Shown: positions 3,551 through 32,963 of the stretch, one piece after another | Layout: every line of letters begins with the position of its first letter | Numbering within the stretch: the first letter of the stretch is position 1 | Assembly (NCBI GenBank): GCA_008632985.1 | Contig: QPGO01000036.1 | Span: 334,182 to 398,181 of the forward strand | DNA: 64,000 nucleotides | Direction of reading: 5' to 3' | DNA from: Psammoneis japonica | Lineage: Eukaryota | The notes under the pieces: generated by a model | What the model was told of the DNA's origin: nothing | Seen by the model: only the letters and a program-made list of their open reading frames with translations | Database searches by the model: none | Program-made: the position numbers and the translations under genes

Positions 3551-3554
3551 ATGA

Positions 3555-8340: not shown

Positions 8341-8522
8341 ACAACGCGATCCATCTTGAGGAACCCGCCAGTGCTCTTGATGTCATCCAGCACACTGTCC
8401 AACACTTGCTGAGCTTCGACTGGTGATTCCTTGTTGTTGTCTGCAGACCATTTACAATGCCATTCGCGTGCAACTGTGTCAAAATCGACACCAGGTGCAA
8501 TTGTGGCGAATTGTCTTTGCAT
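8075..8522 (-). pseudogene. Pseudogene of a small conserved algal protein of unknown function (FDTVAREW.CKWS.DN ... RVVCGGCLDFKV ... F.PEK.F.EKLK); partial second copy at ~3270-3550
   Basis: Motifs recognisable in ORFs 8199-8522 and 7849-8202, separated by a probable decayed intron; TA-depleted. Family recognised from memory, not searched. Confidence 0.7.
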
Positions 8523-9548
8523 GTGAGATTTGTGAAACTGAAAGACTCGAAACAGATGGGGAGAAACAAGTCAAACATGAAGAGTTTCGAGACGCCACCG
8601 TTGTTGACATCGATGATGAATGACGACTTGGAAGTTGAACGTAGCGAGCGAGACAAGCTTCTCAAGACGAGGGCGACTGCTCTGAAATGTGCTTCCATCT
8701 TTCCCAGAAAGAACGAGCCTTGGGTTGTGCCAAGCCACCCATGAGAGAGAGAGACCTTTCCTTCCATTTCAATTGTCTGAGAATGTCCCCATGATTGTTT
8801 GCTCAACGCAAGACAGATGGAATTACATGCTGTGCTTCTGGTCAAAGCAAGGGGTGCGTGACGAAACAAATCTCAACTCACTCTGCGCCTCGAGTCATGC
8901 CGCGACTGCGGACATTTCGGGCAAGGGATGAAGACAACGTTTGAACGCAGAAAGAAGCATCTTGAGCCGATGACGAGAGCGCCGCAGCCAAGCAAGGCAA
9001 GAAAATAATGACGCGAGTATCCGGAGCTACGAGCTGTGCCGCACTTGACGCAACCAAGGGACAAGCTAGGGCTGTCGTCATTTAGCACGAGGCAACCCCA
9101 AACCTGAAGCCTAAAAAGCCGCATCCATCGCATCCGGACTTGAAAAAAAGATACAAGATACCATGATCCGAAAGAATAGAAAGCTTCGTGTACTAAGAAA
9201 AATAATAGTTGCATCAAAGACGATACTGTAGTGAGCATAATCATTCTTCTCCTTTCTTCATAGTGACGTATTGGCTTGTCTACTATCTTGAAGACTCTAT
9301 GAAAAATTTGGATTCAAGTTGGATATACAAAAAAATTCGTATACATATAAATAATAATAACGTTCAACGCATCTCCCGCCAAAAACGGGCGGAAATGATG
9401 ATAACATTTTGGTTTCTTCGTCTTCAGTCAGAATCCAGCCATGAGCTCCCTTCAACCTGCGTTGTGTCGCCGTCTTTCTTGAAATTGTTGAATAACAAGG
9501 CGACTATTGAGTCGTCATCGGCTCAATAGAGAGCGATAAGAGTAGACA

Positions 9549-10124
9549 ATGACTGCTAATTCGATTTTTCAGATTGATTATGCGCTTGCGAACCGAGGAA
9601 GGAAAAATTGTGAGGCTCGACGCGTAGTTCATTGGAGATACGGATATTCTTGTGACGAAACGAATGAAACCAATGAAGTCGAAGTTGTTTTTACCTGGTG
9701 GCTGTCTTCAGGTAAACAACTTATTGAAGTCAATGGACAGGAGCAGTTTTCCGGCAAAAATGCTTCAGCCAGCGTCTTTGATCACAAGTTCAAGGCGCAA
9801 AACGGACACGAACTTCAAATTGTTGCAACTAGGACCCCTCCAAACAACGTGAGTGCTCAGTTTCGAAGTTTTGAGCTGCTCGTGTTTGGAAAATCATTTT
9901 TTACCTACCCTCTGCTGGGAGAAGCAATGACCGAACGGAACGAATATGTATCCACCAGCGACAGCGGCGCGTCTTCGATTTTGGATATTCTTTATCCGGA
10001 GAAATCTGCTTTCGAAGAAAAAGAAGAGTATGTGGTGATCTTTGAACCCTCAAGCCCTTCACGTGCTGTATATCAAGAAGACAATCATGGAGGACGAGGA
10101 GCAGGACCAGACTTGTTGCTTTGA
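9549..10124 (+). CDS. Conserved hypothetical protein, 191 aa (diatom-type RRVxWRxG ... WxLxSGK ... FRxFELxVxGxSFF family)
   Basis: Clean ATG-to-stop ORF with normal Tyr content and natural composition, in a TA-normal island. Confidence 0.8.
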   Translation: MTANSIFQIDYALANRGRKNCEARRVVHWRYGYSCDETNETNEVEVVFTWWLSSGKQLIEVNGQEQFSGKNASASVFDHKFKAQNGHELQIVATRTPPNNVSAQFRSFELLVFGKSFFTYPLLGEAMTERNEYVSTSDSGASSILDILYPEKSAFEEKEEYVVIFEPSSPSRAVYQEDNHGGRGAGPDLLL

Positions 10125-10699
10125 GCGAGACGAAATGACGACATTGGTAAAGGAGGACCAAGTTGAGCTGCTGGTCTTCTTGCGAGAGAACGCCAGTAAA
10201 CTTGTACAACACACGATAGGTGTTTTACGGTAGCTTGTTTGCATTTTATAAAGAAAAACTTTAACTACATTAGCTGTCTCAATTTACCATATCCCCCCAT
10301 GTGGCTAGCGACCGTGACTGACTGTGGTCAGGGTTAGGCGTTCACAACACTGTGTGTGCACGGTAATGTACAGTATTTGCCATCATGCATTTCGCTGTTG
10401 GTCAGCTTTCATATGCAACTATCTGCATTCCTCGTGCTGTAATAGACTCAACTGCGAACTCTCCAGTCATGGATCTGACCAGAATCATTTCTCTATTGGC
10501 GGGCAGGTCGCAATCCCCAGCATTGTTCTCTGCCTGCACAACAACAAAATGAAACTACAAACACTCGCTTTTAATGCATGTAAGAAGTAAAGTACAGCAG
10601 TGTGTTTCCTTAGTCATCGTGAGACCTGCCGACCTTCAGCTTGTCTTACCCAGCCTTTGGTAGCCGTTCTGGACAATGTGGCTATTGGTCGGCACTGCC

Positions 10700-11823
10700 T
10701 AGAAAGTTCATGGTTCCCTTTCCCGTGCCATTGGGTTGTCCTTGATTTTCCAAACACGTTTCAACTGCATAAATGAGAAAACCGTACATGCATCAGCATG
10801 TTCGAGGAGGAAATTTTGAGGGAAGAAGCGGTACAAAGGAGGGTGCATACCTTGTATGCTCCTGGAACCAAAGCATCGAAAGCATTAAGAAATCGCTTCG
10901 GGTGATGCTTAACAACGTAGTCTCGGGTGCTCTGATCAGTGTAGAACCTATATATCCATCCAGAAGTCTCCCACGTGTTCTTCAACTGCGCAAGATCGGG
11001 ATATCGGTCGGACGTGATTTCATCCCACCACGTCTGATGGACAATTCTTGGTATTCTTCCATGTCGTTGGATTCTATCATTGAGAGCTTTCTGTGGTGGC
11101 GGTCTTGAAACTGAAACCTCTACCTGTCCGTGTCAAGAATTGTCGAAAACAATTCCGCGGGAGAGGTCGTGTTCTTTAATCCCTTGATGTCGCGCATCAA
11201 AGACTTCACGTATTAATGGCGAGGAGAAACCGCAAACAGACAAAAGTCCAATTATCCTTGCCTGTTTTGGTTTGTTTCGAAGCTAGTTGCGAAGTGGACT
11301 GCGCGAATACCACCGCACCTCGAGCTATACATGGTTTGCTCTCTCTTCAAGCAAGATATGGCTGAGTTTTCATCTTCCGTTTCAGAGATATGAGTAAGAT
11401 ATCATACATGGTCTGCGACAAAACAGCCTCCGAACTGATACAGGCTGCAAAGGGCCCAAATAGATTCTATCTGAGTTTGAGGCGGATCTGTAGGCTTCAT
11501 CAAGACTTCTACCGAAGTGCGAAACCGTCCTCTGCATATCTTCCTTATCAAAGAGAATCACTTTACCAGATATCCCTCGCATTGGCTTGATCCACTCTGT
11601 AGGCTGGAGAATCACGTTCGGGATTCTGGATGGAAGTTTCAGCATAGGCCCCGAGTTGCGCGTGTTGTTGCGCCAGAGTGAGCACGATTCCTCCCACTCG
11701 TTAGCTTGGTATGTTAGATCATGCAGTGAATGTTCTCCTTGAGCAGCTTTTGTGAGTGTCTGTACTCTAGTGCCCCGTGCGAGAGACTATGACTCGACAT
11801 CAGAATCCCCAACGCTTGCCATC
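10700..11823 (-). pseudogene. Glycosyltransferase family 32 (OCH1-like, DXD sugar-binding) gene remnant or disrupted gene
   Basis: Translation around 11050-10850 gives IPRIVHQTWWDEITSDRYPDLAQLKNTWETSGWIYRFYTDQ...AFDALVPGAYK, followed by a GT..AG intron. The expected ADLFRY/DXD part does not follow, and the upstream frame MASVGDSDVES* has an early TAG. Confidence 0.6.
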
Positions 11824-12157
11824 GTGACTGTACAGTAGCTGTAGCTTTAGCAGCGTTTCGTCATAAACGCGAGAACGAACTTTCGAGTCCCCATATTCCA
11901 AACCGTCCACCTCGAAAAGGAATAAGGGGATCCAAATAATGTCCGATGATAAGCCAAGTATGAGAACGCAGAGGAACAGAAAGCGCGCAGGCGTTGTTTT
12001 CGAGAAGACCAGCGAAGCGAGAAAACCGAATCAGCAAAAAATGAGACAGACCACGGAATGATTTCCAATGTTGCTTCGCTTCCCTTCTCCGTTTGAACCG
12101 TCCGGTCGTTTTTTCATCTCATCGTCCTGTGTGTTTTCGAGCTACAGTATTTCCAAA

Positions 12158-12506
12158 TATGACATTTTAGAATGACTGTGGACATTTCAAGACGTAAACT
12201 CTTAGAATTTCTACAGGCTGAGAGTCAGACATCAGAAAGTTTCATGCAAGTGTCGAACCTCCACCGTGAACCTTAGTACAAATCTACGAGAGAGACATTC
12301 GAAGAGTGTCTATTTTCTTACGTGGTCCAGAAGGCATTGAGATCACTTCTCACGCAGATCACTTTTAGATTAGTTCAGCTCATAATTTCAACTAAGCACG
12401 AGTTAGTAAGACAACTCATTGCTGTTTTACTGGCTTTTAGTACCTTGTGCTGATTGTCAGCACTGCATTCTACAGACAGGACTTGTTTCCCAGGCAGAAT
12501 CCCACA
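12158..12506 (+). repeat. 5' LTR
   Basis: TATGACATTTTAGAATGACTGTGG...AGAATCCCACA; aligns with 26327-26688. Confidence 0.93.
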
Positions 12507-12521
12507 GGCGCTTCCTCTGCG
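12507..12521 (+). promoter_or_regulatory. Putative primer-binding site GGCGCTTCCTCTGCG
   Basis: Directly abuts the 5' LTR; its complement CGCAGAGGAAGCGCC resembles the D-arm of eukaryotic initiator tRNA-Met. Confidence 0.5.
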
Positions 12522-12579
12522 ACCTGCTTCGCAACTTCAGTTTCAAGTCAGCCATTGATCGAAACCAAGCCCTCTGACG

Positions 12580-14100
12580 ATGGTCAACACATGCACTTCC
12601 ATTGCATCATTGACATCTCCTGGGACTTCAGGAGCTCCAAAGACTGCTGGCATGACTGCTGGCTCTCCTGATGCTCCAGCTCCTGTCGGAGCTGCTGCTG
12701 CTCCAGCTCAAGCAGCCGCGCCGGCTCCACCGGTCCCACCAGCTCCTCCCGCAGGTGGTGGCGGAGGCAGTGGTGGAGGAGGTCCTGCAGGTGGTGGTGG
12801 CGGCACTCCACCAGTGCCTCCCATGCCTCCTGCTGCACCTGCTGCAGGACCAATCTTCGCACTGACCCCCCAGGCCAACACCGTCCTGATGATTGGATCG
12901 ACCAAGGTCTCAAATTGTGGCACGCGGCTGCTGCACCACTGCCCCACAAGTTCAACAGAGACTCTGAAGGTCTCAACAAGTTCTGTGAAGTTCTCAACAA
13001 ACAAGCAGCAGAGTCAGGATGGAAGTCGGGAATGGGAAACATCACTTTAATCCCAGACAGCAACGGCGCCAATCGTGACCCAATCACTGAGCATGGAAGA
13101 CTCTTGCCATTCAGAACATCTGGGATCATGCAACCGGATGCATGGGTGTCCAGTCCAGGCAAGCTCAGAACCAAGTCCAAATGGCTGAAGCGATCTCTCA
13201 TGTGCTCACTGCAGAAGCCAGAGACAAGATCATCGCCAAAAGCAAGCAATGCAAGATCAATGGCGCACAAGTTGGCACCCTGTTTTTCAAGCTGCTTGCC
13301 AGCTGCTTACCCAGAAGACCATTGTGGACACTTGTTTGACTGCAAACTGCTTCAAAAAGAACCTCTCTAGTCTGGACTCATGCATTCCAACCTGCAACTC
13401 CAACATCGAAGAGTTCAACAAGTGTGTCAAGCTCAACTGGGACAGTCTCAGAGCCAGGGGAGAAGGTTGCGATGACCTTGTTGTGAACTTGCTCAAGGGA
13501 TGCATTGCTGCTGGTGACCAAGCCCATGTCAAGTGCATGGCTGACATCAAGCAAAAGTGTGATGATGGTGAGGATTGCACCCCGGAGTGAGTCATGAAAC
13601 TGGCACTGGACAAGTGCACTAACCTGGATCGAGCGGCAAGTGGGGAGCTCTGTCACCCAAAGAAGAGAAGATCATCACTCTCTCCTCTGAGGTTGAGACC
13701 ATCAAGGATCCCAATCTCAAGCTCTCCAAGGCTCTCAAGAGTGGTCCCAACAAGTCCAAGGGAGGTGGTGGCAAGCAGAACTCCAAGAACAAGAGCAAGA
13801 ATCCAAAGCGTGCCAAGAAACAGGACGAAGCCTGGAAAAAGACTCCGCCAAAGGACGGTGACCCCACAAAGACTGTCAATGGACACAAGTGTCATCACAA
13901 GAGTCAAAAAGGACGTGACTGCTGTTGGTGCAAGCACCACTCCACTTGGGCAGCTCACTCACCAGACGATCCAGGAGAGACAAAGGCTGTGGACTGCACA
14001 AAGCTCAAGAATCCGAGAGTGGGTCATCCAACCCCAACAAGAAGGTGTCCCACGCCAATGCTCTGGCATCTGTCATTGAAGACCTCGAGTCCAAGGAATG
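12580..14100 (+). pseudogene. Copia gag remnant
   Basis: Pro/Gly/Ala-rich N-terminus, then DDLVVNLLKGCIAAGDQ...KQKCDDGED (CoDi-type gag with Y->C changes); frameshifted. Confidence 0.75.
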
Positions 14101-14449
14101 ACCAGTCTGGGAAGCTTTCCAGACACGGGCTTTCTGCATGAAGGTGGTCCTCATGACGCTCACAATTGCCCCAGTCATCACGAGCTTCATGGATGCTGTG
14201 GCTCCACTGCTGTCGATCACAATGTTCAATTCACTCAACCTGCAGGAGAAGAAGTGGAAACACACATCTAAGTCAACAATGATGTTGGGCGAGTGGATCA
14301 TTTTGCAAATCCCAGCTGATGGTGTGACTGGCAGACACAAACCATGATGGAACAAGAGTCAGCACTCACCGAGATGTGTCACTCCCAAGAAGAAGGGCCA
14401 TCCTTCTTGAGCAGCCTGCAAGAAGGCTCAACGCAAGATCACCTTTCAC

Positions 14450-16532
14450 AAGATGGTCTGCACCAATGCCTTTGCCATCACAATGCCATTCAAACAAGAG
14501 CCAAGAATGGAGCCAGCATCCTGCGACTCTGACTCCTTCATCATTGGTGTCAACAACCACGCAACCTGCACAATGTCAAATGACAGATCACATTTTGTTG
14601 GCAACCCACGTCCCACAAACAAGCAGATCAAAGGAGCAGGTGGATGGTTGGACACAGAAGAAGAAGGTGCTCTCAAGTGGTGCATTGAGGATGACAATGG
14701 GGACAGATGCATGCCATCACAACATGCAACGCATTGTGCATCCCGCACTTGCTGATTTGCCTGCTCTGCCCCCAGCAGTGGAGTCAGCAAGCACAGAATC
14801 ATCATCCTGAACCACACGGGATGACTTCCTGGAACCAAGACGACGGTCTCCAGCTCATGTGGGATCAAAGGAAGTGCAAAAGGCTGGTCCCTTGGACCAA
14901 CAACTCCAGCATTGCATGCTTCCATTCCGCACCCGGTGCCACCAACTGTCAGGCATTCGCCGCCACAGTTGATGCTGAAGACAACATCAAAACTGTCGAG
15001 CACACAGCCTTGCAAGATGCACGTGACACCTCCAGACAACAAAGTGACTCAGAGTCCTTGGACACTGTGAATGAGAAAGACACCTTCACAAGTCCTGACA
15101 AGACAGGCACTGACGAGACCCCAGGTGCATGCAACAATGTTGATGAGGATGTGCCACCATTGTTCAAACCAACAGATGTTGCACACAGATCCGACTCACC
15201 TGTTGAGAACCTCAAGGATCTGGCAACCCCAGATGTCCAATGTTAGATCAAAGATCCCATCAACATTGTCCCTGTCAATGAAGCCCTTGCGGCCACTGAC
15301 AACCAAGGTGAATTGTTGCATTGTGGCACTGTTGCCTTGGACACCAATCGCTCAAAATGATCAAGCTCCTGGCTGCCTTGGGTGTCCTTCTGAGACGCCT
15401 CCCAAAGGTGAAAGACCCAAAATGTGCCAGCTGCCTCTGCGGCACCATGACCAAATGCCCTTGGCATGCCAAGTCCAAATGCAAGTCAAACACACATGTC
15501 ACTGCAAAGACAGGGGAGGTTGTCTCTGTGGATCAGCTTGAAAGCTCAACTCCAGGATTCATCCCACAACTCAAAGGGAGACCTGCCAAACAGAGATGCA
15601 GAACAGCAACAGTGTTTGTGGATCACCACTTGAAACTGGGACATGTGTTCCTGCAATGTTCACTCACCTCCAACGAAACCCTGAAGGCCAAGCATGCATT
15701 CAAGGCCTTTGCGAGACAACATCATGTGCAAATCAAACACTGCCATGCTGACAATGGCCAATTTGCAGACAACGCTTTCATGCAAGATGTTGAAAGACAA
15801 GGTCAGACTGTGTCACATTGCAGCATCAATGCCCACTTCCAAAACAGCATTGCAGAAAAACGAATCTGAGACCTGCAAGAACAGACACACAAGCAGCTGC
15901 TGCATGTGAAAGCAAGATGGCCAATGGCTGTTGAGATCAATCTCTGGCCAAGTGTGTCACACAACTCCAACAAGATCAAGAACAACTCACCTGGTGACCA
16001 ACCCAGTGGCAGGTCTCCAATTGAACGATTTGCCTCCATCAAGGTTGCTCCCAATCTCAAGCAAAACCACACTTTTGGATGCCCCATCTGCATGCTGGAC
16101 AACCAGCTGCAGAGTGGACAGAGAGTGCCTGAGTGGTGGTCAAGAGCAAGGTCAGAAATCAACTTGGGACCATCACCAAGACAAGCTGGTTCAGTGAACC
16201 CAGCACTCAACCTCAAGACTGGACTCACCTCACCACAGCTCCACGTTCAATTTGACAACTTCTTCAAAATGGCACACCCTTCAGCAGGGAATCCTGCTTT
16301 CTTGCAATGGCAAACTGCGCCAGGCCTGAAGAAGCAAAAGGGTTTGAGATTCAACACATTCAAGCCCCAAAGGGAGGCAAGGGAGCCTTGCTCTGCTGCG
16401 CCGGTGCAGAACACTTCAGCACCGGAACCTGACGTTCCAAGACAACTCAAAGACGAAAATTTTCCAACTGCAGACAATGAAACGTTTGAGCCAGTGGAAG
16501 ATGTGCCTGCTCAAGACACTCAAGAGGCAACA
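14450..16532 (+). pseudogene. Copia protease/integrase remnant
   Basis: WHCCLGH and CASC zinc finger, VSVDQLESSTPG, FVDHH, HCHADNGQFADNAF (canonical HYHADNGRF), AHFQNSIAEKRI, HTFGCP. Confidence 0.92.
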
Positions 16533-18866
16533 CATCAGAGCATGCAATGCAGTGATCAGACCGACTTTCTTACAGCAAATTTTTTAATCTGTCACAGTTA
16601 AAAATTTTGTGGTTTCAAACCTCATCAGTTGTGCATGTGGTGACAATTCATTGACTGCGAAAGACAAACTTTGTTGCTGTGGAGCCCACAACTGTCCTGT
16701 GAGGCAACACCATTCACTGTGAGACATCCAACCATTTTCCCTGTGAGAGTGCCTGCCCTCCATTCCCACAAAACCTGCAATTTAAAATCATTTGCATTGT
16801 GCACATTCCACTTTGTTGTTTGCATTTGATTTGAATGATGCAGATGGAGACAACACCATGATGCCCAAGGCTTGCCATCCAGAGACACAAGCCCAGTGGA
16901 GATGCCACTGACAGCACTCCAGTCGGCACCAGCGTGGGAGTTAAATGGCATCACTGCCCTCCACGGTCCACCAAGGCTTGCACTCGTGGACGCAGGTCAA
17001 CATGTGCACCCAGCACCGCTGATTCTGGAACAGGCATGTCAGCAGCAGGAGCTGCTGCTGTTTTGTTGTTTGAAGTGCCATTGCTCCACTCTGCCTCATT
17101 CATTGCCAAAAAGAGCAAAACACATTGTGAGAGCATTGCACAGATGAACCAACATAACCCACAGGAATGGCAACATGGACACACCAGTGCATCTGACGCC
17201 GCTGACTCTGGAGCAGGCAAGTTTGCAGCAGAAGTGCTGTTGCTCCTCTGATCCACCTCATCCATTGCCAAAAAGTGCAGAGCACATTGTGAGAGCACAA
17301 TGTAGATGAACTAACATGCACCACAACACACACTTGCCGGTGTGTCAGTGCATCTGGCGCCGCTGATTCTGGATCAACACAGATGCCAGTGTGCGGTGTG
17401 AGACGTGGAGCCCCCAGCTCCACCCCTGCAACTCAAAGAAAACACAGAAAGAAAGCATGTGAGCAAACAAAAAAATCTCAAGTGCCACAGAACACACTCA
17501 CTGGAACAGCTGTGGGAACAAGCACTGCCTGCATGTGCGCCACACTGCACAAGGCGCTGCACCAACAACAAAGTCATGCAGCAATGACTGAGTTTGCCCC
17601 GCACCTCCCATGCTGCAGATGGTTCATCAATGGCATGTTTAGAGCATGGACCACAAACAGCAGAAAGACTTGGGAAGACTTCAAAAATGAGCCCAACAAC
17701 TCAGGCAACCTCCAATGGGTTGCCTCCCCACTCTCTGCCTCTGCAGTCTTTCTGGATCTGGACACAGAAATTGGAGAAGACGGATGTGAAGCAAGTGAAC
17801 ACATCAAAAACAAATGAAGCTCTTTTTGTGCATGCCTTTTTTGAAGAGTGTCACATGTGGCAAAGAACTTTTCATGCATGTCATTCTGAGAGCTGCAGGA
17901 ACAAGCACCGCCTGCAGTCTTTCTGGATCTGGGTGCAGAAATTGGAGAAGACAGATGTGTTGCCAGCGAATGTGTCAAAAACCAATGAACCTCTTTTTGC
18001 ACATGCCTTGTTTGAACAGTGTAATTTGTGGCAACTCATGACAATTCTGGGTGCAAAACTCTGACACACGCGATCATGCCAACACTGCAGAAAAGCAAGT
18101 TTGTGATGCACATGCACACAACACACAACAACACGCCAGCAGCTCAGCATTCTGGACGCAGCAGATTTGTGACAGCACACTCGCGATCATGAAATTCAAG
18201 CTGCACCCCCAAAAAAAAAATCCCATCTTGACCAACCAGAAGGACAGCAGGTTTCACCATGCATTGAGCTGCTGTCATCGGCCAATGGGGCAAAGTCTTT
18301 CACCGCCATGGCCAGTTGTTGATTTGCAGATTTGCGACCACACGCAGGATCCACGTGAATCACAACAGTGCATGCTCTTGTTTTTCAAACTTTGGGGAGA
18401 GGGTGTGCTGTCACAATGTGTGCAGAAAATTGCACATTTAAAAAATGTGCTGAAAATGCCGTGTGTCAATGGGCTGTGCAAATCTGGGAAACATGAAGAA
18501 AAATGAAGGTGGGTCAAGTGTGTGCATGAAGTGCTGCAGACTGCACACTGCAAAGACACATGCACGTGAGTGAGGAGGACAACATCAAAGCCAAGTTCAA
18601 ATTGATGATGTGGCAAAGTGTGCAGAAAATTGCGCATGCAAAACACACACTGAAAACACCGTAGACCAACAGGCTGCACAAATCTGGGAAACATGAAGAA
18701 AAATGAAGGTGGGTCACGTGCGTGCGTGAAGTGCTGCAGACTGCACACACGTGCAAAGACACACACACGTGAGTGAGGAGGACAAAGTTAAAACCAAGTT
18801 CAAATTGGCTGCGATTTAAAGGAAACTAAACCATGCATCACAAAAATGGATTTTGACCCCAATTAA
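16533..18866 (+). mobile_element. Non-autonomous TIR element family 'CATCAGAG', copy A (right end missing)
   Basis: Begins CATCAGAGCATGCAATGCAGTG; colinear with 22240-24461 and 59875-62186; breaks off at CCCAATTAA. Confidence 0.88.
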
Positions 18867-19993
18867 GGCACAACAACAGCCCCTTACTTTCCCAACATTC
18901 CCATTTGCCCCTTTCCCCTTTCATCCCGCAATTCCCGGGTGCACCCGTGGATCCCGTGTTAATACATGAATAAAAAATAATACATTGGAAATTCCCCGTG
19001 CTTCCCCTCTCGTACATTTCTACGCGTTCTCTACGTATGAGCTAGACAATCGACCGACCGCAACAAAAATGGGCAACACGCCATGGCGCGTTCGCATCCC
19101 ATTTATGACGGCTGTTGTCTATCAATCACGACACCGTTCAATGTATTCGATAATATCGATTGAACGGGATCTATAGCATAAAATATAAGATGAAATATGA
19201 TTGCACATGTGCAGAACACCAGTGCAATTGATCGTTGGGCGTCAGTTGTTTTTTTGTTGTGCAATCACAAATGTAAGCCATAAAGCGTACAGTAAAGGCC
19301 AAGGCAAAAGTAGAACCACATATAGCTAATAATAATAATGTGGCGGATTGAATAGTCACCCTCATTCTTCCAATATACACATCTTATGTGCAGAATGAAG
19401 GGGATCGTTTAGATCACTCTTTTGTCGTCCATTCCAGAAAGGCAAGCCATGAGGCGTCTAGTGTGAAGGATAAGGCAAAAGTAGAATCGCATATGGTTAA
19501 TAAAAATATGGCGGATTGATTGATAATGTTTCTTCTTCCCTTTGACCTATCTGATGTACAGAATACGGTGTATCATTTATTCCTTCTTGTGTCGTGTGGT
19601 CACAAATGCAAACCACAACGGCTCTAGAGCAAAGGCTAAGGCAAAAATAGAGCCACATGTGAGCAATGTTAATATGTATGATTTAATGGTAAAGTTTATT
19701 CTTCCCTTACTCTACCATAAGGGGCCGCTTTGTGTCGATTTGCATCCGTCATGGTCGTGCATCGTTTTTTCCGCGCGCCGGTCGCCATGAGAATAAAAGC
19801 ACACCCGCCTGTCTATAATTACCGTACATTACCGCATTCCATTCGTTTTTTGTTCCCCTCCCCTGAGCCCTTTTAGTCGTTCCTTCCCGCTAAATTACCC
19901 TCATTTCCCGGGCATTCCCCAAAAGGGCAAGGTAATTCCCCCTTACCCTTGCCATTTTGGGGAATCCCCAAACGGATAAAACCAAACTGAGCC
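18867..19993. mobile_element. TA-intact 1.1-kb insertion, probably a younger non-autonomous element, with three ~170-bp diverged internal repeats
   Basis: Abrupt return of TA dinucleotides. AAGGCAAAAGTAGAA-type repeats at ~19300, 19472 and 19638. Ends (AA)GGCACA ... TGAGCC(TT) form a short imperfect inverted pair. Confidence 0.55.
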
Positions 19994-20004
19994 TTGCAAC
20001 GCTC

Positions 20005-20520
20005 AACCGCCATTTTCAAAGTGTCCCTGGGATTCCTCCAAAAGCTCTCAATGCCCTCAGCATGCAGCTGTTGTGATGGTTGATTGCACGAGGGTGTCCT
20101 TTCACTCTGGAGGAGTTGGGTGCCTCCTCAGCTCTCAATCTTCTGGTGTGGACAAGTGACTGGGGGCCACAGCGGCACAAGAGTGGCCATTCTCAAAGCA
20201 GTGTTCCCTGGGTTCCATCAAAGACCCTCAATGCCATCAGCCTGGGGTTGTTGTTTTGGTTGGAGGCATCAGGGTGTCCTTTCACTCTGGAGTTGGGGGC
20301 CTCAGCACTCACTCTTCTGGTGGTGACAAAGTGACTGCTGGCCACAAATGTGCCAGATGACCCTTGCAACACTCCTCAGCTGCAGCTGTCACAGCATTGC
20401 CATGAGGTTTTGCCAGAGACCCTCAATGCCCTGCTTGGCCCACAGTTGTTGCACACACATTGGTTGGCTGCATCAGGGTGTTCTTTGTTCACTCTGGAGT
20501 GTGCCCTCTGGCACCATGGC
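20005..20520. repeat. 2-3 diverged ~180-bp tandem units, distantly similar to the 42.5-46.9 kb satellite
   Basis: Repeated TCAAAG..GT(G)TCCCTGGG..CC..AAAG..CTCAATGCC...GGGTGTCCTTTCACTCTGGAG(GAG)TTGGG...AAGTGACTG. Confidence 0.7.
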
Positions 20521-20599
20521 TGTTTTGCACAGAAGTCTGTGCAGAAATGTTTTTTGCACATGCAGAAACATGCTGGAATCTGCAAGAGCACCAGAGCAC

Positions 20600-21345
20600 A
20601 TCACTCACATGCAACTCCTCTGGTGGAGCTCATGCAGGGTGATGCGGGTGTCAGTCTCACATTGGATGCAGCCTCTCTGCTGAGGGGTGTGCAAACTCAT
20701 CTTGCCATGTCAGAAAGTGCGTTCATGGAATGACATGCTCAAAGCATTTGACGCTGAAGTTGTTTTGGCTCTGGCACCCAAGGGCATGGGCTGTGTGATT
20801 GGCAAGGCAGAAGCAATGATCAGGAGCCTTGGAGACAGCAATGATGGCTTTTTGCTTCAGCAACTCAATCACCCAAACAATCCAAAGAAAGGAAAGGTCC
20901 ATCGGGAAACAATTGGTCCTGAAATTTGGGAGTGTGCAGATGGCAAGGCAGGTGTTTTGGTGGTTTTTTTCAGCAAAAGAGGAGCTTCTGTTGTGGGGTG
21001 CAGTCAGCGCTTGAAGCCACTCAACCCGGCTCTTCAAATTGCAGCTGTGGAGCCAATGAAGTCAGCTGTTCTCAGCCATGGCAAGCCCAGCCCACACAAG
21101 ATTCAAGGTGCAGTCATCCAAGTGTTGGACAAAGGTGCTGCAGCCATGGCCAGGATGCTGGCCACCAATGAGGGACTCTTTTGTTGAATTCCCAGTGAAG
21201 TGGCTGCAAGCAACAGCAGCCACTGATGTTGCCAAGCATCCTGAAAACAAGGGGAAGAGTGTGATTGTGGTGATTCCCATTTTTAGAGAATGCCACCTCA
21301 GCATGGCTCTGTTTCACAATGTGTGGGATGAAGCTGTGTTGCACT
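20600..21345 (+). pseudogene. cysK: Cysteine synthase (O-acetylserine thiol-lyase) pseudogene
   Basis: LKAFDAEVVL, LLQQLNHPNNPK..VHRETIGPEIW, AVEPMKSAVLSHGKPSPHKIQG, AMARMLATNEGLF, AKHPENKGKSVIVVIPIFRECHLSMALF; frameshifts and a deletion. Confidence 0.9.
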
Positions 21346-22239
21346 CAAGGCAGGCATTTCTTGTGCACACCAGCGGCAGTCCAGATTGAACTGGTCATTG
21401 CAAGCTGCCACAAGCAAAAGGATGAGAAACATGAGACCACCCTGGTGTTCACCAGCAGTGATCCCCTGGCATCTCATCTCTTGAGCATCTTCCAACAGCA
21501 TTGCCTTGTTTTCCAGGCCTCAAAGCCATTTGCTGGTTGGAGATTGCAACAGTCAAGAAGATTAAAATTGACAATGGTTCTCATGGCCAGACACAAGACA
21601 CTTCTTGCAAATGTCAGCACTTGGGGAACTCAACATGCGTGAAGGATGCTTCATCTGTGAACAAAGAGGAACCAAATCTCAACCTTTGACAATGGAGGTC
21701 ATCATGAATTGCTGTCACAAATGGAGCAATGATGCCACACCCTTGGAGCAAATCTCCAACGGCAAAGATTTGCTCCCAACAAGTGAATGCACGTGGCATG
21801 CTTCGCGCAGATTGCACGTGACACATGACATTTTCATGCTGTGTTGATTGCATTGTCATGAAGGTGCATGAGATTTGCTCCCCTGGTGGTTGAAGGATTG
21901 ACAGCAACAAAAATTTCAGCTTGCATCTTCTCCCAAAAACTTTGTTTTCCATCACCTCTTTCTTCCCACAATTTTTCATTGTTGCAACAGCTGCTGATCC
22001 ATGATGAACAAATTTGGAGTCACCACAGCTCCCCTTTGGTGGACCCAGCCACCAGCAGTGTTTCTGTTCATTCCTTTGCTCCTTTGCTTGGCTTGTGGTG
22101 TGCTCTAGAAACTTTTGGTTTCTGACATCCAAGTCTTCTCCAGAGTTTTTGCAGAACCCTGCTTTGAACATTGAATGTTCTCAAATCAGCAACTCACTTG
22201 TGGAGCAACTGCTGCGATGGCATGGATTCACCGCCGGTG

Positions 22240-24461
22240 CATCAGAGCATGCATTGCAGTGATCCAGACCACCTTTCTCATGGTGATTTTTTAATCTGTC
22301 ACAGTGCAAAATTCTGTGGTTTCAAACCTTGACAGTTGTGCAGCTGGCAATGACATGTCAACTGTGGCAGATTAACATTTTCATGCTGTGAGATCAGACC
22401 CCCCCTCCCCATGACAAAAATTGTTTCACCATGAAACAGGGACACTTTTTCCCTGTGAGAGTGCCCACCCTCCATCCCCACAAAACCTGTAAATTAAAAT
22501 CATTTGCACTGCACCATGAACATTCTATTTTGTTGTTTGCATCTAAACCAAATGATGCCAATGGAGACAACACCCTAGAGTCTGCAGCAGCAGTTGCAGC
22601 TCACTTTCTTTAAGTGCCGCTGCTGGCAACCACCTTGTTCATTGCCAAAAAAGTGCAGAATGTGTTGTGAGAGTGCAGTGTGGATGAGCCAACACCGCCA
22701 ACAGGAGTGGCAACATGGACTTGCCGGCGCATCCAGCACTGCTGATTCTGGAACAGGCGAGTTTGCAGCAGGAGCTGCTGCTCCATTGTTTGAAGTGCTG
22801 CTGCTCTGTTCTGCCTCATTCATTGCCAAAAAGAGCAAAACACATTGTGAGAGTGTTGCATGGATGAACCAACACAACCCATGGGAACGGCAACATGGAC
22901 GTGCCAGTGCATCTGACACCACTGATTCTGGAGCAGGCAAGTTTGCAGCAGAAGTGCTGTTGCTCCTCTGGCACTGATCCACCTTGTTCATTGCTGAAAA
23001 GCACAGAGCACATTGTGAGAGCATGATGCAGATGACCTAACATGATCCACAACACACACTTGCCGGTGCATTGGTGCATCTGGCACAGCTGATTCAGGAG
23101 CAACGTAGATGCCGGTGTGCAGTGTGAGATGTGGAGCCCCCAGCTCCACCCCTGCAACTCAAAGAAAACACAGAAAGAAAGCATGTGAGCAAGTGAAAAA
23201 CCTCCTGTGCTGCGGACGGTGCGTTGATGACATGTTTAGAGCACAGACCAGAAACAGCAGAGAGACTTGGGAAGCCTTTAAAAATGAGCCCAACAACTCA
23301 GGCAACCTTCGATGGGTTGCCTCCCCACTCTCCACCTCTGCAGTCTTTCTGGATCCAGACACAGAAATTGGAGAAGATGGGTGCAACGCAAGTGAACACG
23401 TCAAAAACAAATGAAGCTCTTTTTGTGCATGCCTTTTTTGAAGAGTGCCAATTGTGGTGTTGCAATGAACTTTTCATGTGTGTGATTCTGAGAGCTGCAG
23501 GAACAAGCACCGCCTGCAGTCTTTCTGGATCTGGGTGCAGAAATTGGAGAAGATGGATGTGTTGTTGGCAAATGCATCAAAAACCAATGAACCTCTTTTT
23601 GCACATGCCTTGTTTGAACAGCGCAATTCATGACAACTTGTGATGATTCTGGACGCAAAACTCTGACATGCGTGATTGTGCCAACACTGCAGAAAAGCAA
23701 GTTTGTGATGTGTGTGCACACAACACACAACAACACACCAGCAGCTCAGCACTCTGGATGCGGCAGATTTGTGACAGCACACTCGCAATCACGAAATTCA
23801 AGCTGTGCCCAAATAAAACCCCATCTTGACAAACACCAGAAGGACAGCAGGTTTCACCACATGTTAAGCTGCTGTCATTGGCCAATGGGGCAAAGTCTTT
23901 CACCGCCATGGCCAGTTGTCAATTTGCAGATTTGTGACCACATGCAGGATCCACGTGAATCACAACAGTGCACGCTCTCATTTTTCAAGCTTTGGGGAGA
24001 GGGTGTGCTGTGGCAAAGTGTGCAGAAAATTGCACATGCAAAACACACACTGAAAACACCGTAGACCAACAGGCTGCGTAAATCTGGGAAACATGAAGAA
24101 AAATGAAGGTGGGTCAAGTGTGTGCGTGAAGTGCTGCAGACTGCACACTGCAAAGACACATGCACGTGAGTGAGGAGGACAACATTGAAACCAAGTTCAA
24201 ATTGATCATGACCAAAAGGAAACTAAACCATGCATCACAAAAAATGGATTTTGATCTCAACTGAATTAAACATTGCATGCATTTGATTGAAGCTTGTGCA
24301 AGAAAAATTAATGAGACATCAGATGAAATGCAAAAACAGCTTCATTTTGTTGAGCACTTTTGCTGGCATTTTTTAAATTCTGCTTTTGTTGACAATTTTG
24401 ACAGTGCACATTAAAAATTTTACAATGGAAAGTGGAAAGCACCACATTGCCACCTCTGATG
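22240..24461 (+). mobile_element. Non-autonomous TIR element family 'CATCAGAG', copy B (complete)
   Basis: TG|CATCAGAGCATGCATTGCAGTG ... CACATTGCCACCTCTGATG|CA; the flanks fit a mutated TA TSD. Confidence 0.9.
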
Positions 24462-26283
24462 CATCAGAGCAGCCAAGTGTTGCCAGTGGTGGCAGGGCTG
24501 GCAGAGTGCACAAACCGATGCAACGCATGGTTGAAAGCCAGCAACAACGAGCCGCCGGCATCGTGTCGCATCACACAAATTACAGCGAGCACTGCGATGC
24601 CATGCCTGAAGATGACTGCAAGCTGCAAGACAACATGGACTCACCTTTTGCCTTCTTGGCCAAAACAGACCCTGACACCATGCATTTTGACCAAGCCATG
24701 AAAGAACCAGACCAAGACGAGTTCATCAAGGCTTGCATCAAGGAGGCAAATGACCACATTGAGTGCAAACACTGGGTGCTCATGCCCATTAAAGAGGCCC
24801 CAGAGGGTGTGGACATGCTCCCTGTGATCTGGTCTGTGAAGAGAAAGAGAGACACATCAAGACAAGAAAGGTGTGCAAGTGCAAGTCCAGGCTCAACGTG
24901 CATGGTGGTGAGCAAGAATTGGCTGTCAACTGTTTTCAAACTTGCGCCATGGTCGTCAACTGGAACACTGTCTGCTTCCTGCTCATCCCATCCATCCTGA
25001 ATGGGTGGCACACTCGCCAAGTCAATTTTGTGCTGGCTCATGCTCACACCAATGTCAAGTGTGACATGCACATGGAACTTCCAAAAGGTGTTGAAACCAA
25101 ATGTGGCAACGGCAAGACTCATGTTTTGAAATTGTTGAAGAGCCTGTGTGGACAGAAACAAGCAGGCAGAATTTAGGGCAAGCACTTGAGACAAGGTCTG
25201 GAGAAAATTGGTTTCAAGCAATCATAAGCTGATGAGCATCTCCACCACAGAGGAAATGTTGTTTTCACACACTGCACCGATGATGGCATTTTTGCCTCAC
25301 CAGATGAGGCTGCTGTCGACCAAGCTGTCACGGACATGTGCAATGAGAACTTTGATGTTGATGATCAAGGGAGCATTGACGATTGTCTTGGTGTCAATGT
25401 CGAGACTCTCCCTGATGGACGCACAAAACTTGTGCAACTGCATGTGATCAATCAGATGCTGAAAATGGCGAACTCACCTCAATGTGCACCAGACAAGCAA
25501 ACTCCAGCTCCAGCATCCAAAATGCTGCACAGACACAAAAATGAAGAGCCTTTTGATGGTTCCATTGACTGCAGAGTTGTGGCTGGTGAACTCAACTTCC
25601 TTGAAAAGTGCACCAGACTGGACACAGCTTGTGCAACACATCAGATTGTGCATGATTTTCGAGCAACCCCAAGCAATTGCACAACAAGGCAATGCCATGG
25701 CCATGTGAGCACCTGCACACAACCAGACACAAAGGCATCATGCTTGATCCAGATGAGGACAAGTCATTGGAAGTCCACGCAGACGTGGACTTTGCAGGCA
25801 ATTGAAACAAGCTGACTGCCCCATGTGATGTCAGCACCTCAAAGTCACAAACTGGATGTGTCATCTCACCTGTGCCAATTGTCCTGTGGTTTGGACATCC
25901 AAGCTGCAGGCACAAATTGCACTCAGTGCAACAGAGACCAAATGTGCTGCACTGTCTGAGAGCCTCCAAAGTGCCACACCGTTTGTCAATTTGACACACG
26001 AGTTCCAAGAACATGGACACAAGGTGCCATCAGAAACTCCTTTGGTCCACTGCAAGGCTTTTGAGGACAACTCTGGTGCCCTGGAGATTGCAAGATTGCC
26101 CAAGATTTGCCCAAGAACCAAGCACTTCAACACTTCACTCCATCATTTCAAAGAACATGTTGGGAATGGCGTCATCTCCATTTTTTTTTCATTGACACCA
26201 CTGAACAAATTGCAGACATGGCAACCAAGCCAAATCCTCAGAATTTGTTTGTGAAGCTGCACAAGAAGCTGCTCAAGTGGTGA
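24462..26283 (+). pseudogene. Copia reverse transcriptase / RNase H remnant
   Basis: DPDTMHFDQAMKEPD, WSVKRKR, HMELPKG, LKSLCGQKQAGR (canonical LYGxKQ), CTDD at ~25272 (YxDD), IALSATETKC, FEDNSGALEIARLPK.PRTKH. Confidence 0.95.
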
Positions 26284-26326
26284 TTTAGATTCAAGTCACA
26301 GCTGCGCCCAACACTTTCAAAGGGAG

Positions 26327-26688
26327 TGTGACATTTTAGAATGACTGTGGACATTTCAAGACATCCAAAATCTCAGAATTTCTGCACGGCTGAGTCAGAC
26401 ATCAGAAAGTTTCAGTGCAAGTGTTGAATCTCTGCCCTGAACCTCAGCACAGGATCTGCAAGAGAGACATTCAAAGAGTGTCTGTTTTCTTGTGTGGCAC
26501 ATGTCCAGAAGGCATTGAGATTGCTTCTCATGCAGATCACTTTTAGATCAGCTTGACTCACAATTTCAACTGAGCACAAGTTGGCAGTGCAACTCATTGC
26601 TGTTTTGCTGGCTTTTGGTGCCTTGCACTGGCTGATTGTCAGCATTGCATTCTGCAGATGGGACCTGTTTGCTGGGTAGAATCCCACA
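26327..26688 (+). repeat. 3' LTR
   Basis: TGTGACATTTTAGAATGACTGTGG...AGAATCCCACA; preceded by the PPT and followed by TSD CCAAA. Confidence 0.93.
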
Positions 26689-26699
26689 CCAAATTGTTG

Positions 26700-28650
26700 T
26701 TCCGTGCGTGGTCCAGGTTGGTGGTTGACGGTGTTGATTGTGTGGGATGACAAAGGTTCAATGCAGGGCCCTGCCGGTGGTCACAATGTGGTGGTGGAGT
26801 GATGAACTTGTTTGCTGGCTTAGCGAAACTCAAGGGACCACCAAGGCACGCATTTTCAATGTGCGTGCACTGCTTGAGCAACTTGATCTTGCCAATCTCC
26901 ATTGGAATGGAATTCAGAAGTAGCTCCTGCTGATTCTCAGATCTCTAGAATGTGCAATCCCTGCAATGCAGTTCCTTTCAACTTTCCCAAGCAGCCAAAA
27001 TTCAAAATGTCCAGGACAAGAAGATCTGTCAGCTTGGCAAACTGGAGAGGGGTGCCTTCATGGATGAAGTCATTTGAGCCAATGTTCAAGCAACACAGGT
27101 CACTCAACTCTTTGAAGAAAGCACGCCATTTGTCTCTGGTGCAAAAGCACATTTTTTTGCATTCGATGGCCATTTGTGTGCTGAAATCCAGGCACAAGAA
27201 TTTTCCGCATGTGACTCTTCCACTCTAGAGTGTCTTTCATGGAGAGCAATGCATGTCATCAGGATCCTTGTTGCCAGAGGGCATGTGTCAGGGAGGCTGG
27301 CATCCCAGCACTCATTGCTGCAGCGATGCTTCTTCTTGATCATTGCGCCTGGTGAAGGTGCTCATCATGACCATTGAAGCATCAACAAGTTTGGGTCAGA
27401 AGCAATGACTGAGCTGGTTGAATCATTGGAGGATCCCAAACTCTTTGAACCACACCAAAAAGTCATTGGAGGGAATTGCCTTTGCATGTGTGTGCACCGG
27501 CATGGGACTTGGTGATGGACATGAGGCAGCATGGTGCTTGGCGCAATTGCATTTTCATGCCAAGGCAGTCTTGTTTGTGACTGATGCAGCTGATGCATGG
27601 CAACTGGATGAAGTGGAGCACAAACTGGATGGATGGATTAAACAACAAGAGATTTTTTAGACAATTTGCCAGTTGCGCGTTGCGCTGCTGCTCAACAAGT
27701 GTGGTTTAGAACAAGCCAAATCATCAGAAAAAATGTTGAAACGATTCAATGTCAAGAACTGACTCTAAAAGGACAATGACATCAAGAAGCATTTTAGTGG
27801 GTTTCATCATTTTTCTGAGCAAAGGAAATGATCAATTGTTGATCTTCTTTGGGCTTGCTGCAGATGCCTGTCTAACGAGACATCGAGCATTGAGCCAGAA
27901 CAATGACTTTGGAAGATGCTCTAGCCTGTCCTCAATCACACACCATGCAACATGCTGCAGACAAACAGCGTCATTCCATTTGGCCCTTGCTGCAAAGTTG
28001 CTGAGTGCTTTGGCCTTTGGAGCATCTTGGGATTTCTGGGTCAAAGCAAAAAACCCTTCTGCCAGCAATGTGTTTGCACGCTGCCATTTGTCTGTGATGA
28101 AGCGCGCATTGCGTGCCCACACCCTTTCATCTCATCTTGGGAAATGATTGAGTGCAGGTGCAAGAGCTGCAGGCAAGCAATCTTAGATCAATGCTTCCTT
28201 AAAATTTGGTTGTCAGTTGAAGTGGCAATCCATTGTCTTGCAAGTTCCCAAGGTTTCGCCGTGCAAGCACACTGCACTTTGAAGTGGCTCCCACTCGTGC
28301 AAGACACAGGGATGAGGCCACTTTTACCAGAGTGTGAGAGTGCCACTCATGCACTTCAAAACCAATCTGATTAAAATTCGTTGCAACCGGAAATTGACAC
28401 TTCAGCATCGCGGTGCATTAGATTTGGAGAACAGTGCTCTTGCGCGCCAGCCACTCTCTCGGTGTTGAAAAATTTAGATCCTTCAAGAGCAAGAGCAGTT
28501 GGTTGTGACAATGGGCACATGGCTTTGCAATCGATGTGAAGATCAATGGCACCGCGAGATGTGAATGAAGCAATTCATTGGATTTCAGGACATGACTCTC
28601 ACGGACCAACCAAGAGCAGAAGTTGAAAAAGGAAAGTTCTGGGAAAAGCG
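26700..28650 (-). pseudogene. TA-depleted degenerate coding-like sequence, product not recognised
   Basis: Protein-like fragments on the minus strand (e.g. 26937-27197, 27832-28122) without Tyr; no motif I can assign. Confidence 0.35.
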
Positions 28651-29402
28651 GAGTGGACTGCTCTCTAGCCGCTAGAGCTGCTCTAGCAGAGCAGCCACTG
28701 CTCTCTACTCTACCGGCAGTAGAGCAGAGCACAGCAGAGTGGGACTTGCACTCTGGCTGCTCTAGAGAGCTGTCTAGCTCTAGCTAGCTAGAGGGAGCCA
28801 TGGTCGGTCGTAACGCACCGGTGCGTGCCGGCCCCGGCAAGGACAGACGTCTGCTCATCGTAACGGTCGAATGAAGAAATCTTCGTGCGCACCGCAAAAA
28901 GATTCACGATCAAGGACCAACTCCCGCGCGGGAGCACTTTCTTCCATGTATTTTACCATGGTCTCTGATCCACTTTGATCCATTCATCGGAGTCGAGCTC
29001 TCTACACAATTTTATGTACATTAGACAAACACAGAGGCAATGACTAACACAAAGATGGTCATTCAACGCGCTCTAAAAGAGTTTCCAGTACAAACTTTAC
29101 ATGAAGCTACCTGAAGCAACTCCCGCACGGGACCCTGACTAGCTCACAATTTCCTAAACAAAGTGGTCGCACGGGAGTAGAATGATGGACCAAAATGGAT
29201 GAGTACCGGAGTTTTTTAACGTGCTCGTCTACGGAGGCAAATCTTAAAATGTACCAGGCGCCGTTAACTTTCTACACGGTCTTTTTGAGGAGGACCAAAA
29301 CGCGATCACTTCGAGAGCACTTCACTTTTTCCCATCTCGACGCTCTCACAATCCGAGAAACTCGCAAACTTTCACTCACTCAAACTTCCTCAAGCATTTA
29401 CC

Positions 29403-29894
29403 ATGAAGCTCTCTACCATCTTCTCCATCGCCGCCCTTGCCTTGGCTACTCCCAACGCCGTCTCGGCCAACTTCGCCATGTACGAGGGAAGCATCTTCAT
29501 GGTCAGCGAGACCGATGCGGAACTCACCGCCTCTGACACCCTCTACCTCGACATGATCGTCAAGGACGCCTACAACGAGGCTCATACCGGCGGTGACTTT
29601 ACCGCCGAGGTTGCTGTGGTGAGCGACCTTGATCTCGTTAGCCGCCGTGCTCTCAACGAGAATGGAGAGCGCAAGCTTCCTAACAGTGGAGGCTGGGCCG
29701 GTGTCGTTCAGGTCGGAGGACAATGCTACTTGTGTGGTGGGGGTCGCCGTGGCCTCAAGGGAGGAGAAGAGCAGCGCCGTCAGCTCGACGATGCCGTGGT
29801 GGCAGCGCTCTTGTGCAACAAGCTCGCCACGGGCTCCAACAGCAAGTTTCATGGCGTATCTGACTGCCAGGTCAGCCTCATCCTTGTCGAGTAA
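29403..29894 (+). CDS. Secreted protein of unknown function, 163 aa
   Basis: Signal peptide MKLSTIFSIAALALATPNAVSA; strong C-ending codon bias; CYLC motif; clean start and stop. Confidence 0.88.
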   Translation: MKLSTIFSIAALALATPNAVSANFAMYEGSIFMVSETDAELTASDTLYLDMIVKDAYNEAHTGGDFTAEVAVVSDLDLVSRRALNENGERKLPNSGGWAGVVQVGGQCYLCGGGRRGLKGGEEQRRQLDDAVVAALLCNKLATGSNSKFHGVSDCQVSLILVE

Positions 29895-32359: not shown

Positions 32360-32963
32360 TATGAATGACGCACGTAGAAGAAAGAAAATCTCTCGAAAAT
32401 GTGAGATGTCCTGCTACAAGTCTCCAAGTACTCCCAAGTTGCTTGTGCTGAATTTCGCTTTGTAGCGATGTGTCGGTATGTTTGAAAGCTAGTCCGTCCT
32501 GTGAATTCCTCAAAGCTCTTCTCCTATTTTCCCAATCTTTTTGTAAACTCAGATAACGATACCCGTACTGTAGTCCCTCTCCAACGAAGATGATTCAGTC
32601 GCACGACGACTTTCCCTCCATCATTGGCGAAAACCACCGTTGGGGAGCGGCATCGAATTTTTGAATCGCTCGCTCACGAGTCGTCGTCAAGAACCCGACC
32701 GGCGTGTTTGTCCGTTGAGTCTTACGAAAATTACAGTATGACATTTGTGTGAAATCGACAGAATCAGTGCACACCAATGATCAGACTTTGTTGAGTGTGC
32801 TTCCCGAATTGATGTGTCACAACATTACAAGCATGTAGTTAGATGCCGGCAGTAAGCACTGAAGTCTGAAGTTGCATGAAGTGAGTGATCAACTAGAGTA
32901 GAGAGTACTCTCTCTCTCTGCTGTGGCTGGAATTGATTTTTAGAAATTTGGAGTAGATTTCTA

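Follow-up and report, generated by a model that had tools for sequence, protein, structure and literature searches.

The two long terminal repeats (LTRs) of a Ty1/copia retrotransposon in the diatom Psammoneis japonica differ at TA and CG dinucleotides almost entirely in one direction, and the question raised by this locus is how two copies that were once identical came to be changed so unequally. The element occupies positions 12158–26688 of the DNA stretch analysed here (64,000 nucleotides, hereafter the window; positions 334,182 to 398,181 of contig QPGO01000036.1, assembly GCA_008632985.1). It is a degenerate, dead copy bounded by direct repeats with 86% identity, namely a 5′ LTR of 349 bp (12158–12506, plus strand) and a 3′ LTR of 362 bp with TG..CA ends (26327–26688, plus strand). 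The 5-bp sequence CCAAA is present immediately outside both LTRs (12153–12157 and 26689–26693, plus strand) as a target-site duplication. The two identical flanking copies indicate a single insertion, and therefore the LTRs were identical at that time.

The LTRs were compared by a global alignment of 12158–12506 with 26328–26688, which begins one base inside the true 3′ LTR start at 26327 without any effect on the counts. The result showed 48 mismatches at 346 sites, comprising 43 transitions and 5 transversions. At 16 dinucleotides a TA in the 5′ LTR was aligned with TG (10 sites) or CA (6 sites) in the 3′ LTR, and the reverse was found once (12494–12495 versus 26676–26677). A 17th TA present only in the 5′ LTR is the first dinucleotide of the repeat, TA versus TG. 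Seven CG dinucleotides of the 5′ LTR were aligned with TG or CA in the 3′ LTR and one more with CC, and no site showed the reverse. Five dinucleotides differed at both letters, with CA in the 5′ LTR and TG in the 3′ LTR (double differences), and 14 mismatches fell outside all of the TA, CG and double-difference classes. In total, the mostly unedited 5′ LTR contains 20 TA and 8 CG, and the edited 3′ LTR contains 3 TA and 1 CG. Binomial tests gave p = 1.4e-4 for TA (17:1), p = 0.008 for CG (8:0) and p = 8e-7 for the two combined. The observed/expected ratio of TA (hereafter the TA ratio, and likewise the CG ratio) was 0.66 in the 5′ LTR and 0.57 in the 5′ flank, compared to 0.11 in the 3′ LTR and 0.12 in the 3′ flank (26689–28665); the CG ratio was 0.55 in the 5′ LTR versus 0.06 in the 3′ LTR. 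All four pairs of LTR strings quoted in the initial annotation were recovered at their positions. Its description of a 5′ LTR that keeps most of its TAs except at the inner end, and of a 3′ LTR erased together with the flank beyond, agrees with the 20 versus 3 TA counted here. The one-sided loss of CpG, which it did not mention, is equally clean as the TA asymmetry.

The border between the two states lies within the 5′ LTR. The last TA is at 12471–12472 and none occurs in the following 500 bases, placing a step in TA content at 12472. From there to the inner end of the 5′ LTR (12472–12506, plus strand; 35 bp) the sequence is in the edited state, with CA against TG at two double differences and CA against TA at one site. 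The double differences upstream of the border (12262, 12344 and 12376) may be TA edits or CpG losses. A boundary within the 5′ LTR and a few hundred bp wide had been proposed; the location was confirmed but the width was not, as the step takes ~35–50 bp and a fade is seen only in CpG (~0.5–1 kb). A short-read contig of 127 bases from run X1 (12411–12537), which may be the assembly's own data, bridges the TA-bearing LTR and the TA-free interior with 0 differences. The proposed coincidence of the border with a gene island was also confirmed, since the TA-normal block 9006–12471 carries an OCH1-like glycosyltransferase gene with its 5′ end toward the LTR. A GTAT, a very readily edited context, is still present in the left flank 9 bp from the insertion site, and the right flank of 1977 bp is TA-free from its first base. 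The two flanks were neighbours before the insertion, and it is simplest to suppose that the domain arose afterwards and incorporated the right flank.

The same two states are found throughout the window. A two-state model on TA positions split the 64 kb into eight depleted blocks, which cover 40,377 of the 64,000 bases (63%) and have TA ratios of 0.04–0.12, and seven normal blocks with TA ratios of 0.50–0.81. The CG ratio in the depleted blocks ranged from 0.17 to 0.78, while TA was uniformly near zero, and the TG/CA ratio was 1.6–2.0 where the TA ratio was 0.03–0.12. At the 14 borders of the window, TA drops in a step from 0.63 to 0.04, whereas CG declines through 1.0, 0.73, 0.62, 0.5 and 0.34 over ~1 kb. 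The host genes recognized (two kinases, MoaC and the OCH1-like glycosyltransferase) are all located in normal blocks, and the named relatives of the host kinase open reading frame (ORF) are all from diatoms. A Pfam search with the ORFs of the other depleted blocks gave zero matches. One depleted block is filled by a satellite array (42133–46959; ~25 units of ~187 bp; TA ratio 0.05, CG ratio 0.17), implying that the process is not limited to transposons.

The loss of TA depends on the flanking letters. Survival of TA in the depleted blocks, normalized to the normal blocks, was highest for TTAA (62%, 55 survivors), followed by CTAA (30%), CTAG (23%), GTAA (15%), CTAC (9%), ATAA (7%) and ATAG (5%), and was lowest for GTAC (3%, 4 survivors), ATAC (0.4%, 1 survivor) and ATAT (0%, 0 survivors). 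With R for purine and Y for pyrimidine, RTAY is wiped out and YTAR is resistant, suggesting that, on each strand, the process prefers an A with a pyrimidine at its 3′ side. In the LTR pair, YTAY became TG at 6 of 6 sites and RTAR became CA at 2 of 2, and the two TAs common to both LTRs lie within TTTAGA. A ~2.3-kb repeat that is present in three copies in the window (A, 16541–18866; B, 22241–24461; C, 59872–62186), two of them inside the copia element and 5.7 kb apart, gave a mixed result: RTAR became CA at 10 sites and TG at 2, but YTAY became TG at 3 and CA at 4, contrary to the flank rule. For Tyr codons, the rule that a preceding pyrimidine leads to Cys was seen as a trend only (9:4 versus 4:7, Fisher p = 0.22).

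Judged from these comparisons, TA was very probably lost in the 3′ LTR and not gained in the 5′ LTR, a direction supported by four independent lines. First, the reverse transcriptase and RNase H region of the element (24464–26244) aligns to the unedited relatives P0121 and P0122, and at the 29 positions where these have Tyr the element has none, with Cys (TGY) at 13, His (CAY) at 11 and other residues at 5; the Tyr of the relatives' YVDD motif is likewise a Cys (CTDD). Second, CA-versus-TG double differences are explained by one ancestral TA (or CG) that was edited independently on different strands, and three other repeat comparisons inside edited blocks contain 24–27 of them each, compared to 5 in the LTR pair. 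The TA retained in these three comparisons is divided 2:4, 4:9 and 1:8 between the copies, without a skew of the 16:1 type. Third, the 5′ LTR has a TA ratio of 0.66 compared to 0.57–0.62 in host DNA, that is, no TA excess. Fourth, the products in the 3′ LTR match the flank rule, for which other data were used. Allowing for the possible gains in the 5′ LTR discussed below, 14–16 of the 17 TA-only-in-5′-LTR sites are taken as losses in the 3′ LTR. The initial annotation had placed the editing after integration, and the one shared 5-bp duplication, together with the polarity evidence that marks the 3′ LTR as the changed copy, bears this out.

A direct repeat pair of 1.8 kb elsewhere in the window (1715–3551 and 6516–8344) bears on the rate of the process. 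The two copies have 17 unexplained mismatches in 1825 sites, a background divergence of <1%, and 24 double differences, with a TA ratio of 0.08 and a CG ratio of 0.75. The pair was rejected as a proven LTR pair, as no matching target duplication was found. If it was unedited when duplicated, these numbers imply that TpA loss runs at least ~440 times above background, a rough bound. Given that so young a pair is TA-poor but retains a CG ratio of 0.75, the order of rates is TpA editing, then CpG decay, then background mutation. Nearly complete absence of TA with a CG ratio still at 0.68–0.78 was also observed over the whole blocks 1–9005 and 50254–53358. The copia LTRs differ at 8 of 179 background sites (those outside TA, CG, TG and CA) and are thus older than the 1.8-kb pair, implying that the 5′ LTR long remained unedited while editing was active elsewhere. 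The Jukes–Cantor distance of the LTRs is 0.153 over all sites versus 0.046 outside TA, CG, TG and CA. The expectation that LTR dating would be inflated in this genome is therefore correct, by 3.3-fold for this pair, and repeat ages taken from raw divergence would be inflated 3- to 4.6-fold in such genomes.

These results make it very probable that the element was edited in place after integration, when this part of the explanation is taken alone. In the scheme that we propose for the locus, the Ty1/copia element would have inserted upstream of the glycosyltransferase gene, at least ~130 bp from its coding region. Two processes would then have acted across a silent domain that starts within the 5′ LTR, 35 bp from its inner end, spans the element and the DNA nested in it, and reaches 2 kb into the 3′ flank: a very fast change of TpA to TpG/CpA (A-to-G on either strand, most efficient for an A that precedes a pyrimidine), and a slower, ordinary decay of CpG to TpG/CpA, as expected for methylated DNA. 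On both sides the domain would halt ~0.4–0.7 kb before the start codon of the neighbouring gene, the two genes being divergent, and most of the 5′ LTR, lying in the gene-proximal and presumably active, unmethylated zone, would have been spared, leaving the one-sided divergence. Chromatin or position would thus be the cause of the sparing, the domain would be methylated, and an enzyme, perhaps an adenine deaminase or similar, would make the edits. We give the whole of this position or chromatin explanation, in which editing in place is combined with protection of the 5′ LTR by its gene-proximal position, an even chance of being right.

Several points weigh against it. The border lies only 35 bp from the junction of the LTR with the internal region, which is a coincidence if chromatin sets the border. 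The first LTR dinucleotide is certainly a G-to-A gain of TA in the 5′ LTR, since LTRs begin with TG and end with CA. Polarization by other family copies, which the initial annotation had proposed along with alignment of the LTRs, sided with the 3′ LTR at two sites, the letter of the 3′ LTR being that of most other copies at 12407 (16 contigs, depth 868/1226) and at 12429 (8 contigs, depth 760/1264). Measured against the refuting condition given in the annotation, this points to gains in the 5′ LTR at both positions. One to three TA sites may therefore be gains in the 5′ LTR, and background mutation predicts about 1–2 such gains. The polarization from reads rests on 40 of 140 variant rows and is incomplete; in these 40 the non-reference share is always at least 0.50, suggesting that the remaining rows are minority variants. 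A metagenome exact-match scan with conserved LTR words found no family copies. Finally, the 16-kb edited block has midway along it, at a distance of 6 kb from any gene, a patch of 1.2 kb (18789–19977) with normal TA (0.81) and CG (0.98), implying that unedited DNA can persist far from genes. The patch either arrived late or is an island protected from editing, and it fits none of the readings cleanly.

Two other explanations fit the closeness of the border to the LTR junction better than the position model does, because a conversion tract or the element's own transcription start would be expected to set a border there. One is that the element was fully edited and that a later non-crossover gene conversion from an unedited LTR overwrote 12158 to ~12472. 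A donor tract consisting only of LTR would need to stop where the border is found, 35 bp inside the inner end of the LTR, and the patch 18789–19977 shows that newer or unedited DNA can lie within an edited block and be bounded at a structural junction, its left edge being within ~20 bp of the end of the homology of repeat copy A to copies B and C. Unedited family copies do exist, with TA at 12464–12465 in most of the depth. However, at 12407, 12429, 12463 and 12465 the letter in the 5′ LTR is not that of most family copies, and at 12465 the two LTRs share a G where most other family copies have A, which fits shared descent of that LTR stretch. In addition, 12164–12406 of the 5′ LTR forms one unbranched contig with a word depth of 64.7 compared to 65.8 in the single-copy flank, and no near-identical donor is evident by word depth, although depth is not copy number. 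Editing was also active after the much younger duplication of the 1.8-kb repeat, so that an old converted LTR would still need protection. We therefore consider gene conversion unlikely.

The other explanation is that editing takes place only where the nascent transcript of the element runs, with a start near 12472 and read-through into the 3′ flank, so that the U3 part of the 5′ LTR, which would never be transcribed, is spared regardless of the gene next to it. It would account in one step for the border in the 5′ LTR, the edited 3′ LTR, the edited 2-kb downstream flank and the unedited upstream flank. Editing along a transcript would be expected to show a strand bias, but there is none, either in the 3′ LTR (10 TG and 6 CA) or at the Tyr codons (13 Cys and 11 His). 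A start near 12472 leaves only ~35 bp for R plus U5, the patch 18789–19977 lies unedited inside the supposed transcription unit, and two other direct-repeat pairs, although not proven LTR pairs, have no spared copy. Dependence on transcription is thus distinctly unlikely.

That no dedicated editor is involved, and that a passive TpA lesion or base modification is poorly repaired in silent chromatin, appears improbable. TA-free and CpG-poor blocks do coincide and the host genes are spared, as would also be expected if repair favours active chromatin. However, the rate is hundreds of times background, the flank preference is strict (0 survivors for ATAT and 1 for ATAC against 55 for TTAA), and the border is a step. 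Furthermore, the corresponding signature in Bigelowiella switches on and off between lines, according to the main text of the preprint (bioRxiv 10.64898/2026.01.13.699255).

The reverse polarity, in which the element arrived poor in TA and CG and the 5′ LTR gained TA (by a RIP-like C-to-T change at CpA) as well as CG, is barely credible: the letters of the 3′ LTR at 12407 and 12429 do occur in most other copies, the first dinucleotide is a true TG-to-TA gain and ~1–2 gains are expected from background mutation, but it needs 23 of ~76 CA/TG sites to have changed, in two opposite directions, versus a 4.5% difference between the LTRs at other sites, and it is at odds with a 5′ LTR TA content at and not above the host level, with Tyr codons turned into Cys or His in the same element, and with surrounding host DNA that shows no such process. 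Fungal repeat-induced point mutation (RIP) itself turns CpA into TpA, giving TA-rich DNA, and acts on both copies of a duplication; it was rejected because TA is lost here, not gained, and because RIP would not yield a one-sided LTR pair. Editing of RNA or cDNA before integration was also rejected, as it would mark both LTRs alike and 16:1 was seen. As the two LTRs are equally repetitive and any edits made before integration would be identical in both, targeting purely by homology is excluded along with RNA or cDNA editing.

The remaining features of the element are as follows. Internal part 1, the gag to integrase region (12507–16532, plus strand; TA ratio 0.03, CG ratio 0.31), is separated from internal part 2, which encodes reverse transcriptase and RNase H and is frameshifted (24464–26254, plus strand), by unrelated DNA (16533–24461, plus strand) that includes repeat copies A and B, the unedited patch and a cysteine synthase fragment. 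Pfam matches were found for gag_pre-integrs at 15312–15869 (E 7e-8) and RVT_2 at 24793–25176 (E 9e-10), the integrase preceding a copia-type reverse transcriptase. A polypurine-tract-like run, AAAGGGAG (26319–26326, plus strand), abuts the 3′ LTR. The copia frame is broken into many pieces, carries a foreign insert of 7.9 kb and has no Tyr at 29 conserved positions. The copy is called dead because of this shattered frame, the 7.9-kb interruption and the Tyr loss, and its family membership is unaffected. Repeat copies A, B and C have no Pfam match; their raw divergence is 11–12%, compared to 2.7–3.7% outside TA, CG, TG and CA sites, and copy C retains more CG and TA than copy B. The patch 18789–19977 contains three ~170-bp units, and neither an Rfam match nor convincing terminal inverted repeats were found in it. 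The cysteine synthase (O-acetylserine sulfhydrylase) fragment (20684–21187) matches solved plant enzymes with E 1e-25 and lies inside the edited block. The TA ratio of the 1-kb window around it is 0.0, implying that host-type DNA in the silent domain is edited too.

The 3′ flank (26689–28665) is edited from its first base, with a CG ratio of 0.38, and no other copy of it was found within the 64-kb window. Pfam searches with the ORFs of the 3′ and 5′ flanks, and an Rfam search over 11500–29500, gave zero matches. The OCH1-like mannosyltransferase/glycosyltransferase gene (10764–12030, minus strand; PF04488 relatives), whose 5′ end faces the 5′ LTR and is located at or beyond 12030, lies in the TA-normal block upstream of the border. 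It consists of a C-terminal exon (10764–11126), weaker matches to ~11730 and a hydrophobic N-terminal-like ORF to 12030. Residues ~100–700 of its relatives fall on the minus strand in tblastn, and of the 32 relatives some are named OCH1-like or carry PF04488 and one is from a named diatom. The downstream neighbour is a plus-strand ORF (29289–29894, first Met at 29403), and the edited block ends ~740 bp upstream of that Met. The edited block ends ~0.4–0.7 kb from the coding starts of two divergent flanking genes. Farther downstream, TA and CG are normal in both of two tandem paralogous genes for membrane-anchored kinases (30485–32413 and 34935–36811, minus strand; ~80% identity over 300 bases), which are separated by a depleted block of 1.4 kb (33107–34552).

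The LTR pair amounts to a natural before-and-after experiment, in which two sequences identical at insertion are now found on either side of a border. It indicates that TpA is erased from the chromosome once the element has integrated, and not from RNA or cDNA, that what is targeted is a domain rather than a family of sequences, and that the border can be located to tens of bases. We tentatively suggest, at somewhat short of an even chance, that diatoms possess an active defence that changes A to G at 5′-TAY-3′ on both strands, in place, within silent methylated domains that end at genes in a step of <50 bp. If so, this defence would run hundreds of times above background and spread from the transposon into neighbouring DNA, dinucleotide content would record chromatin borders, and the dating of LTRs and repeats would be systematically wrong. 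Homology searches for transposon proteins would fail in such DNA because Tyr becomes Cys or His. The flank preference, with RTAY edited and YTAR resistant, could guide a search for the enzyme.

Among known systems, the signature of the process matches that of the TpA hypermutation described by Mettrop et al. (bioRxiv 10.64898/2026.01.13.699255) for viral DNA integrated in the genome of Bigelowiella natans. As given in the main text of that preprint, mutation accumulation showed ~1000 times the background rate, ~1e-7 to 1e-6 per site per generation, and transposon Pfam families were enriched among TpA-poor coding sequences. Both cases share an almost exclusive change of TpA to TpG/CpA, on both strands, in foreign or repetitive DNA with host genes spared, and the rates are of the same order (~1000 times background there, at least ~440 times here as a rough bound). 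They differ in that Bigelowiella is a chlorarachniophyte and Psammoneis a diatom, on a different branch of the supergroup, and in that the process was seen there in mutation accumulation but is deduced here from sequence. Compared to what the preprint's main text describes, the process here is saturating, extends over 63% of the window, goes together with CpG loss and prefers RTAY over YTAR; that main text contains no mention of CpG, LTRs, diatoms, borders or flanking context. A search of the full-text literature, subscription journals not covered, found no report of TpA erasure in diatoms. The present locus extends a phenomenon known from one chlorarachniophyte preprint to a diatom, where it affects most of the non-genic DNA of the window. 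Together with Bigelowiella, it would, if the proposed defence is real, make TpA editing a widespread defence of algae of the SAR (stramenopile, alveolate and rhizarian) lineage.

Other systems correspond to the process in part. RIP in Neurospora and other fungi, as outlined in PMC7296669, resembles it as a genome defence that disables integrated repeats in place through dinucleotide-specific transitions, with inflated divergence between copies. APOBEC and ADAR enzymes, in the account of PMC4866542, also hypermutate LTR elements by deamination, but before integration, and both the context and the changed base are different here. In Phaeodactylum, copia elements are reported to be marked by DNA methylation and repressive histone modifications, which genes lack (PMC9998398, PMC4504042). 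The signature of 5-methylcytosine decay is present at the locus studied here, with seven CG sites changed to TG/CA and a CG ratio of 0.06 in the 3′ LTR against 0.55 in the 5′ LTR. Decay of methylated CpG as reported for diatoms would account for this CG to TG/CA part and for a border near genes, but it leaves the TpA change untouched, and for that change the closest counterpart is the process described in Bigelowiella.

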